A stretch of 64,000 nt of DNA, taken from Eledone cirrhosa (Eukaryota). The notes under the pieces were generated by a model. It was not told where the DNA came from, did no database searches, and worked only from the letters and a program-made list of their open reading frames with translations. Below, in pieces: positions 3,468-46,352 of this stretch (position 1 is the stretch's first letter; each line of letters opens with the position of its first letter). Location: NCBI GenBank assembly GCA_964016885.1, contig OZ024745.1:68076001-68140000 (forward strand). The letters run 5' to 3'. A program made the translations under genes and the position numbers.

Positions 3468-4087
3468 GTACAATAATGATAAAAATGCGAAAGCTAGATA
3501 TTCCTAGTTCCTTTTATTACGTAATTCATCAAATTTCAGCAGAGAGTAGGGGAAGCACTTCCGTTCAAGTCTTTGTTTCTTTCTTTAGCGATCTGACTAC
3601 TGACCAGTTCAATCGATTATCGCCACATCTCTCGCTTGTCAATACTGGTTCTAAGGTTATTGCTCAAACTAACTTGTATTAATTTATTTCATTCTTTCCT
3701 GCGGTTACAACTCTGTTGCTTTCGAATGTAACAATTTTCCTGTCGTATGTAGATATTTCTTCTGTTTTTTTTCTTTCTCGTCCTATGTCCGTTGTGTTTT
3801 CTTCCCTAATAGATATCCATGGATAGCTATTGATACGCTGGTGGTGAATAATCCTGCCTTATCGAGCATCCGAAACTATAATGATCCACAGAAAAACACC
3901 CGATGTACGGGAATTCTTCATTTGTTTGTCTCTTTCAGGTTTTCTGTTTCCTATATTTCTCCCCGTGTTTATATATATATATATATATATTAGAAAATAG
4001 AATAGCTTTCACCGTATTTTTGACTAAAGAAATTTTAGTCTGATAATGGGGTTTAGAACCCTCAGATAAATGGAAAAAGATGAGTAT

Positions 4088-4158
4088 TGACGTACATGGG
4101 AGTCGAACCCACATCTTTCGTTATCCAGACCACTGTGCTACCATTACACCAACACATC
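4088..4158 (-). pseudogene. tRNA-like 71-nt cloverleaf (nominal anticodon GGA) with disrupted anticodon stem
   Basis: Acceptor GATGTGT/GTACGTC plus A; D arm GTGT-AATGGTA-GCAC; T arm GTGGG-TTCGACT-CCCAT; A and B boxes intact. A second inverted copy is at about 4371-4439. Confidence 0.7.
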
Positions 4159-4604
4159 ACCCATCTCCTTCCATTCAAATTAGAAGCTACATTCTTAGCG
4201 AGTATAAATGACAAGTAAGTATGTTTTGAAACAGTGAGCAGGTTTGAAATTAGAAAATAGAATAGCTTTCACCGTATTTTTGACTAAAGAAATTTTAGTC
4301 TGATAATGAGGTTTAGAACACTCGGATAAATGGAAAAAGATGAGTATTGACGTACATGGGAGTCGAACACATGTGTTGGTTAATGGTAGCACAGTGGTCT
4401 GGATAACGAAAGATGTGGGTTCGACTCCCATGTACGTCAATACTCATTTTTTTCCATTTATCTGAGGGTTCTAAACCCCATTATCAGACTAAAATTTCTT
4501 TAGTAAAAAATACGGTGAAAGCTATTCTATTTTATAATTTCAAACCTGCTCACTTTCAAAACATACATACTTACTTGTCATATATATATATATATAAATA
4601 TATA

Positions 4605-9099: not shown

Positions 9100-10898
9100 A
9101 TGGAAGTGGATTTGGCAAACAATTGTAAAAACTTGGGTAATAACCCAAACAATGGAAACACCAAATTGAAAGAATGTATAAATAACACTGACACCAACAA
9201 CACCAACACAAATAATAAAGAAAATAACACAAACACACACAAAAGCGAAAACAGCAGCAACAATGACAAAGGATACAACATAAATGTGAACTCAAAACCC
9301 GAAAAAATGGGTGAAAATCCCAAAAGCTGTACCGCAAACGACAACAACCAAAACGCAAACGCCCAAGAAAACAAGAACAACAGCAACGAAACACACAAAA
9401 AAAGACCCCACTATACGAATATCCTTTGTCCAGGTGGTTAAGGAGACCGAAACTTTCACCCCGGTTGACATCAGTGATGCAGCTGAATTGCTAAAAGAGG
9501 GGAGAAAACAGGTGAGCTTTGGTGAAAACGGTGATTTCACCATAATCTCCCCTAAGGATATTAAAAGAGCCACGGTCCTAAGGACAATTAATTTTAGAAC
9601 TATTTCAAATGCATCGAAAAAACCAGCTCAATTATCGCATAGCGAAATTGAGCTGGAGTTAAAAGACGCGTTGAAGGACATGATTTTTATTGAGAGAGGG
9701 AAGTTATATGGGAGTCTGAACATTTTGATGAAGGACCAATTGGTGGCCCAAAAATACTCGGTGTCGCCAATTGTGTCCAAACAGTACACTTTCTTCCCCA
9801 CCTACATCGGGAAGAAAACTAAAAAAATAACAATCTCCGGTATACACCCAAATACAAATATGTGGCTGATACTAGGAGGGATACTGGACGACGAAGATGA
9901 ACTCCTTGATATAGGCAAACCCACCAGGAGCCACTTTGGCGGTATAGGCATACAGGTTCCGGTTCGAATGAAACCAGAACGTATCGCAAAGATACCCCAA
10001 AGAGTGCCCCTGGAAGGCTCCCAATTTATGAATATTGCAGTTGAGGATAGGCGGCCCGCTTGCTACCTCTGTGGAGGCAGATGTCACCTGAGGGCTACCT
10101 GTCCTCAACAAACTAAAAGACCTTTACTGCCAACACATCCAAAAACAACACCACCACCACCACAACAACAACAAACACAAGTCAACAAAAAACTGAACAT
10201 GGACCCACTAATCCCTCCACACCCATAACAACTCCACAAACAAAAACACAATCACCACCACCACCATCACCCCAAAAACAACAAACACAACAAGTCAACA
10301 AAAAACGGAACACGGTCCCACCCAACCCATCCCCACCTAAAAAAACTCCAACAACATACATAACAAACCCCAAAATATACCCCTCCCCTCCAACATGGAA
10401 GAGGATCCCTTAACGTCAGAAGACGAGGAGGAACCCTTCCAAAAAATAAAGCGGGAAAAAAGAAAACACACCGCACCCACACAAAGGAAAATAACCCCTC
10501 AAACAAAAGTAAAAAAATACAGAACAAAAACCAACAAAAATGACACAGACACATACTTCAACACAAAAAATATAAAACTTGTAAACAAAATTGAACAAAA
10601 CCCTTCGGTTTGCACCGAAGGGCCAAATTTCACGAGGGCCACAGAGAACCCCTCTTTAAAAATGATTAAAACTCCGACAGACATTTATATAGCACTAAAA
10701 GACAATTTTCCTGAGGACGTGGCCCCCCCCCCCCCCATGTGTAAAACCAATGAATCGAGTCCTCTTGAAAAATCCCCCCCCCCCCCCCCCCCCGACACCC
10801 ACACCATACCAAAAACCCCAACCCCACCACACTCTGATGTCCCCCACCCCCACCTCCATGGAAATTTGCGGCCAGGACCCCGGGACGCAGAGAGGTAG
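9100..10898 (+). pseudogene. LINE ORF1 (gag-like nucleic-acid-binding protein), frameshifted
   Basis: Overlapping ORFs 9100-9441, 9311-10228 and 10395-10898. CX2CX4HX4C knuckle CYLCGGRCHLRATC near 10061, followed by a Pro/Thr/Lys-rich tail. Confidence 0.8.
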
Positions 10899-10926
10899 GT
10901 GCCTCCTTTTTCTCTTTACCACCAAT

Positions 10927-13900
10927 ATGGCTGTATTGAGAGTGGCTTGTCTAAATGCGCGTGGCCTGGGCTCATATTGGAAGCAAGCAAAACTTCTAAA
11001 TGACCTCAGGTCACGCTGTATAAATATGATGGTCAATTGCGAGGCCCGGATCAGCAGCGTGCGCCAGCTAGCCCCCACCTTTGACGACTTTGAGATGCAC
11101 GCATCTCTCTGTCAGCCCGGAGGTGGGAGTGGGGTTGTCGTTCTGCTGCAAAAACATCTGAGTCTCGTCGCACAGACGGTACACCTGGACCCGGAGGGTC
11201 GACTGGTGGTTTTAGACGTTGGCAGTGGTGAAGGCGGAGCCTTTAGGCTGGTCGCCGCCTACGCCCCTTTTGGGTCAGCGCGGCCGGACTTCTTCCAACG
11301 TCTGGAGACTTTTCTAGGGACGTCCCGCTCCTTGCTTTTAGTGGGGGACTGGAATGGTATCCTAGATGCACGTTGAGACTATGTAGGGGCATGTCCTGAT
11401 AGAGGGGGTTGTAACAGCCTCAAGGGGTTAATCGGCCGATTTGACCTGGCCGATAGATATCGACTAGATTTTCCGACTGTGCCAACCTGGACTTGGACAA
11501 ACCATAGCGGTCAATCTAGATCGTACTTAGATAGGTTCTTAGTTAGAAATAAGGATAAGGACTTTTTAAGTTGTCCAGAAATGCTCATGGTTGGCTATTC
11601 AGACCACAAGTTAGTGACCTCCATGGTCAACCTTGATAGAACGCATAGACAGGGACCCGGTCACTGGAAGCTCAACTTGTCCTTACCGGCAAGTAAAGCT
11701 TACAGGGACCGGATTAGTACTTTAGTTAAGGAGCGGTTGATGGGCGCCATCGTCAACAGCAGGTGGTGGGGATCTCTCAAAAGAGAGATTAGAGTAGCTT
11801 CAATAGGAGTTAGTAAGGAGTTAGCCTCAGATAGGAAGGAAAGAGAGTTGGTAGATAGTGTAGAAGAGGCAATTAGAAGCGGCGACGTCGCCAGAGTGCC
11901 AGCGTCGAGAACGGCCTTGGGCCAGTTCTTCGACGCGAAACACGAAGGCTGCGTTGTCCGAAGCAAAATACGTGCTCTGGGAAACGAGGGTACCAAAGCT
12001 GTTAGCTGGGCCCGCGTGACAGAAGCCAAAAGTGGGATTAGATCCACTATCCGGTCTTTGCGAGACCAGGATGGACGGGTGATCTTTGGACCTAAGCAGA
12101 TGTGCGAGGCCTTTCAAAGGCACTTTGCCCGATTGTTCGGAAGGGGCGAGGAGCCGGATGGGGATGTGGACCTCGGTCCATACCTCGACGGCCTGCCGCG
12201 TCTTTCGGACGAGGAGGCGAAGTCCTGCGAGAGGCCAATCTCAGCTGCTGAAATAGCGGACGTGCTGAGCTAATGCGGCAGACACAAATCTCTGGGCCTC
12301 GATGGTCTTCCATACGAACTGTATTTAAGTATGCCGGACTTGTTCTTCGATCTCCTCGAGGCGGTCTACTGCAACTGGCAACAGAATGGGAGAATTCCCT
12401 GTTCTATGACCAAGGGCGTAGTCTCGCTAGTGAGGAAGGACGAGAACAAGGGGGATGAAATAAGTAATTTTAGGCCCATAACTCTGCTAAATGCAGAGTT
12501 AAAGATTTTGGCCAAGGTTTTAGCAAAGAGGTTGGCGCTTGTCGTGGGCAACCTGGTGGGAGATGCGCAGACATGCGCCATCCCGTCCAGGTCCATTCAC
12601 GACAACCTCCATCTCATGCGATACATCATAGAGAGGGTTGGGAACGAACCCGGCTTTGGTGGGGCCCTGATCAACTTGGATCAATCTAAGGCGTTCGATA
12701 GGGTCGACCATCGTTACCTGGATGCGGTGCTAGTGGCGGCAGGTTTCGGACCCGTTTTTCAGGGGCTGGATCACTGCCATGACCCGCAGCCGCATCTGCT
12801 CTAGGGTCAAAGTGAACGGCTACCTCTCGGAGCCGTTTGAAATCACGCGGTCCATCCGACAGGGATGCCCTCTCTCCTCCCTTCTGTATGTATTGGCCCT
12901 AGAGCCACTGCTGCGGAAGTTGGAGTTGTTACAGGGCATCCCTTTAGAACCGGGATTGCGGAAAGCGGTGTCGGCCTACGCCGATGATGTGACAGTAATG
13001 GTGTCAACCGCCTCGGAAATCGGAGTGATCGGCACCTTACTGGAGGAATACAAAAAGTGTACAGGGGCTAAGCTGAACCGGGACAAGTCAGTCGGTTTGC
13101 AACTCGGCGAGTGGAGGGGCAAACCGATGGCTTCCAACGGCGTCGTCGGACGTTGGACGGAGGGCCCGGTGAAGTTGCTCGGGGTCTGGTTCGGGCCCGA
13201 CCTCCAGGTGGAGAAGAACTGGGGTGAGGTATCGAACAGGGTGTTTGCGCTGACGCAGAAGTGGGCTGAGTGCAAACCATCCCTGAAAGGTCGGGCGGAG
13301 GTGGCGAACGCTAATATAGCGTCCGTCATCTATTACCGACTGGCCGTCGTGCCTTGCCCAAGGGAAATGCTCACCAAAATGGAGCGCGCACTCTTCCAAT
13401 TCCTTTGGAAGAAGCGGGCTCCTTTGGTGAGGAGATCCATCTATTGTCAACACCCTTCGAAAGGAGGGCTGGAGATGCCGTGGCTGCTGATGCGTAAACA
13501 CGCATTAAGGCTACGACACCTCCACGTATTCCTCACCGGTCAACCGGTGTGGGCCCCGTTTGTGAGGCGAGCCTTTCCGAGACTCGTCTCGCTCACCGAG
13601 CTGCAGTCCTGGGTCAAGCAAAGACCGAGAAAACTGGGCGCCTGGCACACCGAGGGTGCCCAGGCGCTCACACTCTCTGGCAGGCGGACTCGGCTATCGG
13701 TGGAGAATCCACCTCGTCATTCTATAGAGGGCTGGTGGTTAGTAGGTGCGACGACGCCCTCGGACAAGCCCTAGGCATGGAAGAAGACGAACTGGCCAGC
13801 CTATTCGGGACCTATGGACAACTTCCAGAGGTCCCTGGCAGTGCTACCGAGGGGCGCTGCCCGTTCGAGAAAAGCTCTACAGACACGAGCACCCGGGTAG

Positions 13901-14335
13901 GGACCCCTCGAAAAAGATCTGTCCCAGATGCGTGCGCGACGAGGAAACCGTTGTGCACGCATTGGTACACTGCTCGGGCGTTGCCGATCTGTGGGACTAT
14001 GTCGAACGACTGCTGTCACGGGTGGGACCAATCCGGTTGACCACCGAGTCCATTGTAACGATCAAGCCGCCTCCCCCTTCAAAAATGAAGGAGAGGCGGT
14101 CTTCCTCTGTGTAATAGCCATGGTGAAAGAGGTGGTATGGTGGACACGTTTGAAAGGGCTGAGGTCGGACACCATTCTCTCCGGCCAACAATTGGTCCTT
14201 TTCTTTAAATACCATTTTAAGAGAAGGATCAGAATGGAGAGAGAGGTGCTCTACCCCAGCAAGTTTTATGAAAGGTGGGAGAAAGTAGCGAGAATGGCTC
14301 GTGTGAATGGGCCTTCTCTCTTTATCAGCCTGTAG
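10927..14335 (+). pseudogene. LINE ORF2 (APE endonuclease, reverse transcriptase, zinc finger) with stops and frameshifts
   Basis: APE motifs: LNARGL, VGDWNGIL, SYLDRFLV, YSDHKLV. RT motifs: RPITLLNAELKILAK, LDQSKAFDRVDH, RQGCPLS, YADD (12977). Zinc finger CPRC...ETVVHALVHC. Stops at 11374 and 12271; frameshifts near 12760, 13660-13810 and 14070. Confidence 0.95.
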
Positions 14336-21652: not shown

Positions 21653-22480
21653 GTGGCGGGTTTGAAATGTTTTACTATAGTCTAGAGTCGACCCAAGCCA
21701 TGTGAGTGAAATGTGGCGGGTTTGAAATGTTTTACTATAGTCTAGAGTCGACCCAAGCCCTGTGAGTGAAATGTGGCGGGTTTGAAATGTTTACTATAGC
21801 CTAGAGTCGATCCAAGCCACGTGAGTGAAATGTGGCGGGTTTGAAATGTTTACTATAGCCTAGAGTCGATCCAAGCCACGTGAGTGAAATGTGGCGGGTT
21901 TGAAATGTTTACTATAGTCTAGAGTCGATCCAAGCCATGTGAGTGAAATGTGACGGGTTTGAAATGTTTACTATAGCCTAGAGTCGATCCAAGCCATGTG
22001 AGTGAAATGTGGCGGGTTTGAAATGTTTACTATAGTCTAGAGTCGATCCAAGCCATGTGAGTGAAATGTGGCGGGTTTGAAATGTTTACTATAGTCTAGA
22101 GTCGACCCAAGCCATGTGAGTGAAATGTGGCGGGTTTGAAATGTTTACTATAGTCTAGAGTCGACCCAAGCCATGTGAGTGAAATGTGGCGGGTTTGAAA
22201 TGTTTACTATAGTCTAGAGTCGACCCAAGCCATGTGAGTGAAATGTGGCGGGTTTGAAATGTTTACTATAGTCTAGAGTCGACCCAAGCCATGTGAGTGA
22301 AATGTGGCGGGTTTGAAATGTTTACTATAGTCTAGAGTCGACCCAAGCCATGTGAGTGAAATGTGGCGGGTTTGAAATGTTTACTATAGTCTAGAGTCGA
22401 CCCAAGCCATGTGAGTGAAATGTGGCGGGTTTGAAATGTTTACTATAGCCTAGAGTAGATCCAAGCCATGTGAGTAAAAT
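21653..22480 (+). repeat. Minisatellite, 14 units of 59-60 bp, derived from a SINE interior
   Basis: Unit GTGGCGGGTTTGAAATGTTTACTATAGTCTAGAGTCGACCCAAGCCATGTGAGTGAAAT with no spacers. SINE head and tail sequence flank the array. Confidence 0.93.
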
Positions 22481-24393: not shown

Positions 24394-24800
24394 TCATCCC
24401 TTGAATCGCAAGAATGTTTTGCAAATTTTGAAGGTGCCAGCTATCGCAGCCATTTGTAGACTATGAATTAGGGAGCTGCGCTCTTTGTCCGCAAATCCAA
24501 GTTCAGTCATACTTTGGTCCAAACGGGTTGGTATATAACCCGTAGCTCCAATAATGATGGGTATGAAGCTAAAGGTGTATCTTGGATACTGGATTTGCAA
24601 ACTCCTCATCAATGGTCCGTAGATGTCCTCCTTCTCCTGTATTTTTCTGACAACGTTTACATCAAGTGGGCAGCTGATCTCCACAACAGAACACGTTTTC
24701 AATGTGTGCTCCCAAACAACAATATCAGGCCGGTTGTGCTTTAATTTGGTGGCAGTTTTTATTTTCAGGTTCCACCAGTATTCCTTAGTGCCATCTGTCT
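24394..24800 (-). pseudogene. R4/Dong-like LINE restriction-like endonuclease fragment
   Basis: EYWWNLKIKTATKLKHNRPDIVVWEHTLKTCSVVEISCPLD...KEDIYGPL...PIIIGATG. 5'-truncated at (TATG)n. Confidence 0.88.
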
Positions 24801-24801
24801 C

Positions 24802-24921
24802 ATGTATGTATGTATGTATGTATGTATGTATGTATGTATGTATGTATGTATGTATGTATGTATGTATGTATGTATGTATGTATGTATGTACGTATTCATG
24901 TATGTATGTGGTTGTCTATTC

Positions 24922-29583: not shown

Positions 29584-29653
<70 letters not shown>

Positions 29654-29889
29654 AACATTGAGTTATAAACTCGAAATAGTCTTTTACAATTAAATAGCCC
29701 AAAGAAGGGAATATTTCTGAGCCGTGTAATACAAATGAATATATGAGGGATAAACACCTATAGAATTATAGAAGTGTTCGGATTGCAAATGACCAAGTTA
29801 GCTAGGTTGAAAAAAATACTAATTTAACATCTTGATCTAAAATAATAAATCAATAAAAATAACAAACCTATATTGGCAATGGCCGTGAT

Positions 29890-29960
29890 ACCTGGACAAA
29901 TTCTAAATTTGTTTCGCAACAATTAAGTGAAAGTTACTATTCCTGTGCTCTTCTGCAGGT
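29890..29960 (-). ncRNA. Type-I hammerhead with U4-to-A core change, in cassette 29652-30064
   Basis: ACCTG-CAGAAGA-GCA...TGC-GAAACAAATT-tag-AATTTGTC-CAGGT. Loop II and the tail are homologous to 45983-46323. Confidence 0.78.
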
Positions 29961-30059
29961 TATTATGTTAAATTAGTATTTTTCTACCTAGCAAACATGG
30001 TCATTTGCAATCTGAACACATGTATAATTGTATAGGTGTTCATCCGTCATATATTCATT

Positions 30060-30123
<64 letters not shown>

Positions 30124-30210
30124 CAAACCACTATCCTGATGTCGTCCAAAAGTAATGGTCGCATTTTGAAAGGGTACGTCAATGTTTATTTATAAAACTG
30201 GTATATATTG

Positions 30211-30275
30211 TATTTTGTCTGATGAAGGCATACCATAATTTAACTTGGTATCCTTGAAATATGTATAAGGAAATA
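30211..30275 (+). ncRNA. Hammerhead, diverged paralog of 28950-29015
   Basis: CTGATGA at 30219; AGG..ACCA/TGGT..CCT; GAAAT at 30256; ATA; stem I TATTTTGT/AGGAAATA. The cassette 30120-30318 lies between (TA)n tracts. Confidence 0.75.
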
Positions 30276-30353
30276 AATATGGTTTTATAAATATAGTTTC
30301 CATTTGTTAATATCGTATATAAATATATATATATATATATATAAATATATATA

Positions 30354-30404
<51 letters not shown>

Positions 30405-30862
30405 AGGGACCCGTATCTTAACAGCTACTCTTCCTCCCCATTTTTGTTTGCCTATATTTGACCGGTAGTAGCTGTTAAGATACGGGTCCCTTAGAATAAA
30501 TTTTTTTCGCGACATTCCTGGCTTGACTGTAGTTTGACATTAATACCGACATTTCTTCCTCTTTCTTTCTGTCTTTCTCCTTGTAGCTGGACATTAACCC
30601 TGACTTTTCTTCTTCTTCCTTTTCTTCCTTCCCCCTTCTTCTCTCTTCTTTCTTTTTTCTTGTGGCACGATATTAACGCTGACTTATGTTCCTCTCCCTT
30701 TCTGTTTTCCTCTATTTGACCGGTAGTAGCACACTATAAGCTTTAGCCACGTCACTTGAGGGCGACCGGCAAAAGTGGAAGATGCTGGATGGCGGTCGTC
30801 CTCCGGTCTTTGATTTTCAGCCCCATGGATTTTATCTATTGCATTCACTTATTATATTTCGA

Positions 30863-31141: not shown

Positions 31142-31387
31142 GCTACTTATATATATATAGGTGTGTGTATGTGTGTATGTGAATGCGTGATTGTGTGTGT
31201 GCTTGTATATGTGTATATAAATATTATGTGTTGATGTGTTGGTATGTAAGTTCATGTCGCTATGACAGAAGAAAGCGTCAAACATGTATATGTAAAAAAA
31301 CTTAATATTGTTACTACAAAGACGATTATTAATTGAGCAATATTTTCTGACATGTAGGAAGTCCTTGCTTTAATATACTACGTCTGA

Positions 31388-31971
31388 TAATTGTTTCTAC
31401 TTTAGGCACAAGGCCAGCAATTACCCAGTGCATTACTGGTACTTTATTTTATCGACCCCGTAAGGATGAAAGGCAAAGTCAACCTTGGCAGGATTTGAAC
31501 TCAGATCGTAAAGGGACGTAACTATGCTGGAAAGCATGGCGTCCGACCCACTACCGACACTGCCAATCCACAATACTACTACTGATAATTGTTTCTACTT
31601 TAGGCACAAGGCCAGCAATTAACCAGTGCATTACTGGTACTTTATTTTATCGACCCCCGTAAGGATGAAAGGCAAAGTCAACCTCGGCAGGATTTGAACT
31701 CAGATCGTAAAGGGACGTAACTATGCTGGAAAGCATGGCGTCCGACCCTCTACCGACACTGCCAATCCACAGTACTACTACTAATAATTGTTTCTACTTT
31801 AGGCACAAGGCCAGCAATTACCCAGTGCATTACTGGTACTTTATTTTATCGACCTCGTAAGGATGAAAGGCAAAGTCAACCTCGGCGGGATTTGAACTCA
31901 GATCGTAAAGGGACGTAACTATGCTGTAAAGCATGACGTCCGACCCTCTACCGATACTGCCAATCTACCAC
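31388..31971 (-). mobile_element. Three head-to-tail family-1 SINEs
   Basis: Units of about 198 bp start near 31388, 31585 and 31785, joined by TACTACTACT-type linkers. Confidence 0.9.
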
Positions 31972-36015: not shown

Positions 36016-36908
36016 ATTTCGACTCTAGGAACAAGGCCAGCAATTTGGGGAGAGGGGAAAGTCAATTAAATCGACCTTAGTGCATTACTGGTACTTTTTT
36101 TTTTTTTTTTATCAATCTCGTAATAATTGTTTCTACCATTGACACAAGGCCAGCAATTACCCAGTACATTACTGGTACTTTATTTTATCGACCCCGTAAG
36201 GATGACAGGCAAAGTTAACCTCAGTGGGATTTGAACTCAGATCGTAAAGGACCGTAACTCCATGCTACAAAGCATGGCGGCCGACCCTCTAACGATACTG
36301 CCAAACGATACTGCCAAACGATACTGCCCTAGAGTTTCTACTTTTGGCACAAGGCCAGCGATTACCCCAGCGCACCACTGGTACTTTATTTTATCGACCT
36401 TGTAAGGATGAAAGGCAAAGTTAACCTCAGCGGGATTTGAACTCAGATCGTAAAGGCCCGTAACTCCATGCTACAAAGCATGGCGGCCGACCCTCTAACG
36501 ATACTGCCAAACGATACTGCCCTAGAGTTTCTACTTTTGGCAAAAGGCCAGCGATTACACCAGTGCACCACTGGTACTTTATTTTATCGACCTCGTAAAG
36601 ATGAAAGGCAAAGTTAACCTCGGCGGATTTGAACCCATAACACAAAGGGCCATAACCATGCTGCAAAACATGGTGTCTGACGTTTTACCGATACTGCCAA
36701 ACCACTGCCAATTCATAATAATTGTTTCTACTATTGGCACAAGGCCAGAAATTACCCAGTACATTACTGGTACTTTATTTTATCGACCCCGTAAGGATGA
36801 AAGCAAAGTTAACCTCGGCGGGATTTGAACTCAGAATAGCAAGGGCCGTAACTCTATGCATCAAAGCATGGCGTCCGACCCTCTACCGATACTGCCAATC
36901 CACCGCCA
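36016..36908 (-). mobile_element. Cluster of about five family-1 SINE copies or fragments
   Basis: Repeated cacaaggccagc...tactggtactttattttatcgacc...gatactgcc blocks. Confidence 0.88.
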
Positions 36909-45385: not shown

Positions 45386-45430
<45 letters not shown>

Positions 45431-45438
<8 letters not shown>

Positions 45439-46316
45439 ATTGAATATAAAAGAGAAATAAACTCAGATATATATACACATATGTGTTCAAATCGTAAGGG
45501 ACACAGTTCGCTAGGGTGAAAAATAATACTAACTATAACCAATAGGGTTTGCCAGACTCAATTTAAAAGAATATATCAAGAAAATAAATACAAACCGGTA
45601 CAAGCTGGCAAACCCTATTGTCTATAGTTAGTATTTTTTTCACCCTAGCGAACCTGGTCCCTTACGATTTGAACACATATGTGTATATATCTGTGTTTAT
45701 TTCTCTTTTATATTCAATTATAATATACGGCTCGGAAAAATCTCTTTCCTTGAGCTATTTAATTGTAAGAGACTATTTCGTGTTTCTAACTCAATATATA
45801 CCTTTGATATATTCGGCTCCGTCAATTTGTTGAGCTAACTTAAACGTCGAGTAAACTTGGCTGCTATTTTTAGTATCATAAGTTTGTGAGACACGTTGGG
45901 TATTGATGCCATGTGCGTTATTTTATGTACGCACAATATTCAGTATTCTGAGATACTTAGAAGTGAGGAGTTTACTAATTTTACACCCACTGATGAGCAA
46001 AGAATTGGTAATCTTCTTCACTTAAATTGCGAAACAGTTTCACCAAAAGCTGTCTGGGTGTTTGGTAGTTACCCCATACCGGTTTGTATTTATATTCTTG
46101 ATTTATTCTTTTAAATTGAGTCTGGCAAACCCTATTGGTTATAGTTAGTATTTCTTTCACCCTAGCGAACCTGGACCCTTACGATTTGAACACATATGTG
46201 TATATATATCTGTGTTTATTTCTCTTTTATATTCAATTATATTACACGGCTCGGAAAAATCACATTCCTTGAGCTACTTAATTGTAAGAGACTATTTTGA
46301 GTTTCTAACTCAATAT

Positions 46317-46323
<7 letters not shown>
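45431..46323 (+). mobile_element. Penelope-like cassette with inverted and direct terminal repeats
   Basis: 45431-45601 is an inverted copy of about 46076-46245. 45605-45803 is a direct copy of 46122-46323. It is flanked by (TA)n and has a central hammerhead. Confidence 0.8.
45983..46061 (+). ncRNA. Canonical full type-I hammerhead ribozyme
   Basis: Stem I ACACCCA/TGGGTGT (7 bp); CTGATGA at 45990-45996; stem II GCAA/TTGC; GAAA at 46031; stem III ACAG/CTGT; GTC at 46052-46054. Confidence 0.93.

Positions 46324-46352
<29 letters not shown>

Follow-up and report, generated by a model that had tools for sequence, protein, structure and literature searches.

A non-coding hammerhead repeat of Eledone cirrhosa and its probable insertion by a Hydra-type PLE enzyme

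Penelope-like elements (PLEs) are the closest relatives of telomerase reverse transcriptases. In the Hydra clade of C-terminal EN+ PLEs, the tail of 30-40 nt was ascribed to endonuclease resolution, and the sections of that paper at hand do not mention a hairpin (PMC8557442). That one of the inverted pLTRs carries a tail had been reported earlier (PMC3846280). In Poseidon, two internal RT start sites bound the tail, both target strands are nicked and extended, and a dimer was predicted (PMC11167929). Animal retrozymes are non-coding repeats with a type I hammerhead, for which circular RNA has been shown (PMC7229834); a circular intermediate has also been proposed (PMC4209133). A recent preprint, in the parts of it available, sampled no molluscs (10.64898/2026.07.22.740005), and our search of the literature outside subscription journals and preprint supplements returned no description of cephalopod retrozymes.

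Here we describe a hammerhead repeat of the cephalopod Eledone cirrhosa from a stretch of 64,000 nt (assembly GCA_964016885.1, contig OZ024745.1, positions 68,076,001 to 68,140,000, forward strand; the window, in whose numbering positions are given). One insertion in the window reads, in order, (TA)n, inverted arm, partial tandem, full unit and (TA)n. The full unit (45813..46323, +), non-coding, with a period of 517 nt and a GC content of 34%, is joined at its 3' end to (TA)15 at 46323-46352. It is preceded by a partial tandem copy of its own 3' end (a pseudo-LTR; 45605..45812, +; 93% identical to 46122-46331), which stops before any second hammerhead, and by an inverted arm (45432..45600, -; 95% identical to 46077-46244), which ends at the site called site 1 below and is joined to (TA)n at 45386-45438. 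The 3' end of the unit falls a few nt short of site 2. A non-autonomous EN+ PLE layout is thus present (partial tandem, inverted 5'-truncated arm, one-sided tail and (TA)n target), in agreement with the layout described for Hydra clade elements, which likewise carry a hammerhead upstream of their ends (PMC8557442). The repeat differs from these elements in that it has no ORF and, beyond the hairpins described below, no detectable homology to Hydra-type elements, and in that its tail is longer, about 80 nt.

A second insertion at 29652-30064 has a main arm (29652..29973, -) that ends at site 2 on (TA)33 and an inverted arm (29974..30064, +) that ends at site 1 on (TA)30. The first-pass annotation had placed both cassettes in one family and had made this depend on their alignment outside the hammerhead core; such an alignment was found (78% over 168 nt, E 1e-33), and the kinship is confirmed. 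The two belong to different clades, A at 45813..46323 and B at 29652-30064, and a full clade B unit (locus L034) is identical to the window unit in 361/544 columns, with a score of 485 against 174 +/- 13 in 200 shuffles. With one hammerhead per copy, both window insertions are dead ends. Adjoining the clade B insertion, a third, unrelated hammerhead repeat lies at 30122-30318 (+; CTGATGA 30219-25, GAAA 30256-59, long stem II), in whose relatives the TA-joined end is followed by a hairpin of the type described below (ACTC/GAGT), with another end about 90 nt farther on.

The family is large. Across the assembly (3.0 Gb), the core pattern had 2058 matches, a few of them from other families, versus 5 in the control, and a 25-mer of the tail, with up to one mismatch, had 3244 versus 0. 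DNA searches with the two window hammerheads gave 1612 and 1708 first-look candidates, 40 of which were scored in each case. Long arrays of the unit were not seen among 250 loci; two hammerheads one unit apart occur at three distinct clade B loci (L088/L089, L244 and L248). Both tandem units of L244 (1346-2100) carry the same private duplication of the GCGAAAC/stem III segment, as is expected from copying round one template.

Elsewhere in the window, the repeat scan was dominated by TA runs, and the Rfam scan of the whole window returned microsatellite-driven miRNA noise and one tRNA. A tRNA-Ser(GGA) at 4087-4159 (-) was called by both ARAGORN and Rfam and is possibly a SINE head, because a GGA anticodon is unusual in eukaryotes. 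Broken, GC-rich, LINE-like ORFs with endonuclease and RT at 9290-14037 (+) are presumably of the L1/Tx1 type, and an ORF fragment at 24397-24915 (-) with HNRPDIVV and VEISCP motifs is one that we take to be a restriction-like endonuclease of non-LTR elements. Five further spots (21653-22480, 31375-31965, 36129-36898, 30404-30495 and 1305-1420) hold a 59-bp array (14 copies), two arrays of a SINE-like unit of ~195 bp and two short inverted-repeat elements.

The clade A hammerhead of the window unit (45983..46061, +) has the canonical U4. Stem I pairs ACACCCA (45983-89) with TGGGTGT (46055-61) over 7 bp, stem II pairs GCAA (45997-46000) with TTGC (46027-30) over 4 bp below a 26-nt loop, and stem III pairs 46034-40 with 46047-53 over 7 bp; the core letters are CTGATGA (45990-96) and GAAA (46031-34), and the cut is predicted at a GUC, after 46054. 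All the marks of a type I hammerhead are therefore present (CUGANGA, GAAA, UH, three stems and an open stem I). Block-wise dinucleotide shuffles of the window yielded a hammerhead of equal strength in 0/200 cases, and a loose descriptor matched 0.025 times per shuffled window. Rfam returned RAGATH-1-hammerhead alone for the motif (18.9 bits, E 0.64; gathering score 56.3), and the minimum-energy fold of the local sequence is a structure other than the hammerhead. The earlier description of a textbook intact hammerhead is thus borne out by the core and stems of the window copy, but not by the Rfam score, which is below gathering, or by the minimum-energy fold. Because stem III has 7 bp, the anatomy does not require dimer-dependent cleavage. 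The clade A hammerhead can be expected, with good confidence, to cleave. The failure of 8/9 Xenopus retrozyme dimers to do so (10.64898/2026.07.22.740005) counts against our main reading.

The paralogous clade B hammerhead (29890..29960, -; predicted cut after 29895) has stem I ACCTG (29960-56)/CAGGT (29894-90) and stem III ACAAATT/AATTTGT; the inverted arm has truncated it on the side of the 5' flank, which is missing. Its core is CAGAAGA, with A in place of U4 at 29954 (U4A), so that the claim of an intact hammerhead in both cassettes holds for the window copy and not for the paralog, which lacks CUGANGA. Private decay of the paralog was considered as the origin of U4A and was ruled out by fixation in a monophyletic clade: the CAGAWGA core is found in 683/2058 core-pattern matches, and the eight U4A representatives of a 29-row tree form one branch (100/100), while three divergent relatives of the family have U4C. 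Inside the U4A clade, stem I is either ACCTG/CAGGT or ACCCG/CGGGT, and stem III has either AAAT/ATTT or AGAT/ATCT; since both strands were changed, pairing was kept after the core change. U4C has been named as a tolerated natural hammerhead variant, and U4A is not named in the available text of that paper, its figure 5 aside (PMC3088659). Our literature search, figures and subscription journals lying outside its view, found no publication on a hammerhead with U4A. A natural U4A core is thus kept in hundreds of copies, and descriptors built on CUGANGA miss such motifs.

For covariation, 86 parsed motifs were grouped into 32 clusters, of which 9 truncated or mis-parsed ones and 2 with a long stem III were left out; 21 cluster representatives and the window copy make up the 22 rows of the alignment. 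The parser had admitted only motifs with 3 bp in stems I and III and with the first two stem II pairs formed. In the rows so chosen, 82.7% of the cells were paired, versus 76.1% after shuffling (0/500) and 33-45% after sliding. Stem I is 94% paired. The covariation that the first-pass annotation had seen between two cassettes recurs in these 22 diverse copies, with two-sided changes at 5/7 pairs of stem I and 4/7 of stem III, and at 1/4 of stem II. Across the clades, the core letters vary little or not at all except at positions 4 and 7. Private mutations struck the core as often as other positions in clade A (7/330 vs 72/3132), and the counts for clade B were 1/273 vs 21/2219; this points to selection on source elements and neutral decay of copies. 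Shared variants hit the core in 0/11 cases against 13/106 and 3/89 elsewhere (0/11 vs 13/106 alone is not significant). Selection on the RNA structure, as had been claimed, accordingly applies to the source elements, but not to these two copies.

The ends of the repeat are fixed. From 250 loci, we collected 231 distinct 3' ends, 158 of which were joined to a TA run; two sites about 80 nt apart hold 151/158 of the latter and 46/73 of the remainder. Within about 10 nt downstream of each site, there is a hairpin that opens with RCTC, continues with an upper stem or loop and closes, after a bulge of 2 nt, with GAGY. In the window, hairpin 1 (46249..46274, +; GCTC, GGAA/TTCC stem, TT bulge, GAGC), which recurs in the upstream partial copy (45730..45755, +), lies just 3' of site 1 at about 46244, and hairpin 2 (45816..45835, +; GCTC ... 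TT GAGC) lies just 3' of site 2, which falls at 45812 in the tandem junction. The hairpin 3' of both sites is common to clades A and B and to two PLEs, with compensatory changes. These young autonomous PLEs have ORFs of 821 and 832 aa (61,015 and 32,688 first-look candidates), and the same two hairpins stand behind 69/70 and 16/16 of their TA-joined ends, respectively. Both ORFs show, by eye, RW, DKT, CxCx5C, CxxC and CxH motifs, with an RT followed by a C-terminal GIY-YIG, and by these eye-read motifs we assign both as putatively Hydra-type; Pfam searches with the 821-aa ORF and two PLE fragments, and a PDB search with the 832-aa ORF, gave no significant match. These two very young families, represented by loci L116 and L121 (821 aa) and L135 and L136 (832 aa), contain many near-identical intact ORFs and tandem dimers. 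Both candidate helper families also carry hammerheads of their own with a palindromic loop III, the core being U4C in the 832-aa family.

Apart from the hairpins, BLAST found only low-complexity matches to the unit in 12 fetched regions of the two autonomous families. As these searches yielded no autonomous element that has the sequence of the unit itself, the helper is inferred from the shared motif and target. Among loci enriched for these families, 134/335 motif occurrences had, elsewhere, a TA-joined end just upstream, as against 0/34, 10/118, 0/28 and 1/83 for control hairpins. When CTC/GAG alone was imposed, the first upper pair formed across the 2-nt bulge in 29/37 supported clusters vs 1104/2650 unsupported matches. 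In published consensi, the motif can be seen by eye in Hydra-2_Amil and Hydra-2_Ajap and twice in Hydra-1_Ajap (coral and sea cucumber), is imperfect in Hydra-1_Crog and Hydra-1_Obim, and was not seen in Hydra-1_Amil. A literature search, subscription journals and figures excepted, found no published description of this hairpin. We have little doubt that the unit is a PLE-dependent repeat, and we think it likely that a Hydra-type PLE enzyme inserted this unit of ~517 nt, which carries a type I hammerhead and ends at two fixed sites in (TA)n.

Opposite ends of one insertion use different sites. Mirrored insertions pair site 1 with site 2 in 57/59 cases (55/57 without internal TA runs, p 1e-14); the exceptions, L147 and L148, are both site 2/site 2, and a third called by a looser pipeline, L212, has a left end that resembles site 1 on inspection. 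The opposite ends of the helpers differ as well, in 28/28 and 3/3 insertions of the 821-aa PLE and 7/7 of the 832-aa PLE; two fetched helper regions yielded one end only. This pairing fits twin priming on one RNA, which we consider very probable. Both arms are of the same clade in 55/57 insertions. An arm has its partner as best match in no more than 12/33 insertions, which counts against the main reading, as does the report that Poseidon start sites in vitro are the same for both strands (PMC11167929). No excess of A-to-G editing was seen, and this counts against the main reading too. Neither a count of the end-pairing rule nor twin priming in PLEs was found in the literature that we searched, which excluded subscription journals and figures. 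At L122 (2880-3550), the inverted arm of a clade B copy abuts a PLE RT fragment that is truncated at its 5' end, with no TA run at the junction. The L034/L122 fusion may reflect a template switch but was set aside as evidence for one, the RT fragment being short and decayed.

Next to the hammerhead, a strand of the 5' flank (45961..45982, +) that abuts the top of stem I is complementary over ~20 bp to a strand of loop II (46001..46023, +) that abuts the top of stem II (duplex -20.8 kcal/mol); segment 45970-46075 takes in only the proximal half of this helix. The complementarity is clade-matched and covaries. In 21/23 representatives, the flank pairs more strongly with its cognate loop than, on average, with the loops of the others (p 1e-5), and this holds for 11/14 within clade A (p 0.015); flank x loop energies are -13.6 for A x A and -17.5 for B x B, versus -11.3 for A x B and -11.6 for B x A. 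Two-sided changes occur at 8/18 flank/loop II pairs, with 73-80% pairing, clade B loops being out of register there. Older relatives (L074:1080-1800, L221, L230 and L213, three of them U4C) retain the flank/loop II pairing, and L074 also retains hairpin 2 with a perfect 5-bp upper stem.

In our reading, the flank/loop II helix may act both as a proximal tertiary contact and, at full length, as an off state, and would likely control the ribozyme. A purely activating pseudoknot as in bacterial and human hammerheads, with no inhibition, is an alternative that we take seriously without expecting it to prevail: like a pseudoknot, the helices of clades A and B start from the tops of stems I and II, and a contact of this kind occurs in about 40% of hammerheads (PMC3088659). 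On the other side, the best conserved part of the helix is the distal GAAGTG/CACTT, and pairing takes up to 23/26 loop nt, which leaves 3 nt to close loop II, so that on geometric grounds the full-length helix could not coexist with a closed stem II. That the window copy was co-opted as a regulatory ribozyme of the host, as its intact core and stems might suggest, appears very improbable, since many copies of the family are intact, copies decay neutrally, and an ORF scan recognised no host exon nearby.

The origin of the arms and the form of the template have to be weighed in the same way. Fold-back or self-priming as the source of the inverted arm, perhaps with an antisense template and with no second priming on the sense RNA, was proposed for Penelope inversions (PMC3846280) and would suit L148, which has mirrored flanks and is site 2/site 2. 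We judge it quite improbable for the repeat, as sense-strand hairpins define both ends, either site can end the longer arm (23 vs 11 of 34), and in 27/31 insertions the inter-site tail carried by the other arm is absent from the site-1 arm, so that the former was not copied from the latter; by the last two observations, both arms were templated from RNA. As hairpin 2 lies beyond the inserted end, the source RNA must have been tandem or circular. Of 156 arms examined, 97 reach the predicted cut site and 92 of these cross it, 31/156 are longer than one unit, and a second cut site is reached by 6; cut linear monomers were therefore not the template. What had looked like an accumulation of 5' ends close to the cut site disappeared with clade-specific references, leaving 3 ends within 5 nt of it vs 2.6 expected. 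Circles and uncut tandems are both compatible with these arms. Spread by PLEs from uncleaved tandem RNA would dispense with the circle; the hammerhead would then be vestigial or seldom cleave, chiefly in the U4A clade. Such spread would account for the absence of 5' ends piled up at the cut site, and tandem loci do exist. U4 substitutions lower hammerhead activity, and the flank helix outcompetes the hammerhead: with the natural flank, the hammerhead fold is not predicted (-27.5 vs -14.8 for the hammerhead, in a nested model that cannot score pseudoknots), a result that counts against our main reading. So does the finding that Poseidon insertion in vitro is independent of hammerhead cleavage (PMC11167929). 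We nevertheless regard a vestigial hammerhead as unlikely, because a relic would not have kept the near-invariant core letters across clades or gained compensatory changes in stems I and III inside the U4A clade. The maintained core and stems argue for a working ribozyme, and hence we lean towards a circular RNA template.

In the reading that we prefer, insertion by a Hydra-type PLE enzyme, a source locus with two hammerheads would be transcribed, and the ribozyme would cut out the unit, which would probably be re-ligated to a circle. The PLE protein, probably as a dimer, would bind both bulged hairpins, nick both (TA)n strands and start cDNA synthesis a few nt upstream of each hairpin, so that each priming site serves one target strand. 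Both cDNAs would pass the ligated cut site, in some cases extending beyond one unit, before they are joined head to head; the product would be a main arm, a partial tandem and an inverted arm, with a one-sided tail. The flank helix would likely exert its control through a proximal part in pseudoknot register, while the full 20 bp, which exclude a closed stem II, would keep most of the RNA uncut.

Tentatively, and at somewhat short of an even chance, we propose the whole of the following: that the twin RCUC/GAGY hairpin is a signal of Hydra-type RTs, that a dimer primes both strands on a circle, and that a retrozyme with a clamp-switched ribozyme, active also with U4A, exploits it. If so, the bulged hairpin would supply the signal, long missing, by which Hydra-type PLE reverse transcriptases recognise their RNA. 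The repeat bears on how PLEs choose their RNA and on the origin of the inverted arm and the one-sided tail, and as a passenger of 517 nt, with two small hairpins as all that it has in common with its likely helper, it offers a minimal template that can be tested directly. Ribozyme work gains a long covarying flank/loop II helix, and animal retrozymes are tied to the PLE machinery through insertion anatomy.

Among the known systems, Poseidon PAc resembles the repeat in its two RT start sites bounding the tail, its AT-rich target and the extension of both strands, but it initiates in an AC-rich stem loop inside the ORF and, in the parts of the report available, shows no strand-site coupling (PMC11167929); the repeat has its own hairpin copy for each site and uses different sites at opposite ends. 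The pseudoknotted hammerheads share the base-paired contact between the stem I and stem II regions and natural core variants such as U4C, although their pairings are of 4-6 bp (PMC3088659) and that of the repeat is of about 20 bp. Like metazoan non-LTR retrozymes, the repeat is a non-coding, low-GC, many-copy unit with a type I hammerhead, and it shares with them thousands of copies, tandem forms at some loci and coexistence with PLEs (PMC7229834; 10.64898/2026.07.22.740005); its unit of 517 nt is above the 170-400 nt of PMC7229834 and within the 51-972 bp of the preprint 10.64898/2026.07.22.740005. As far as those sources describe them, known retrozymes form arrays and are linked to their helpers by pLTR homology, whereas the repeat is mostly dispersed as two-armed insertions of under 1.5 units and is linked by a shared hairpin; its stable 7-bp stem III, its 26-nt loop II paired to the 5' flank and its U4A clade also set it apart. 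A hammerhead in a PLE-mobilised retrozyme is thus of a known kind, and what is new is a variant ribozyme together with strong genomic evidence on the helper's choice of RNA and on how it is copied.
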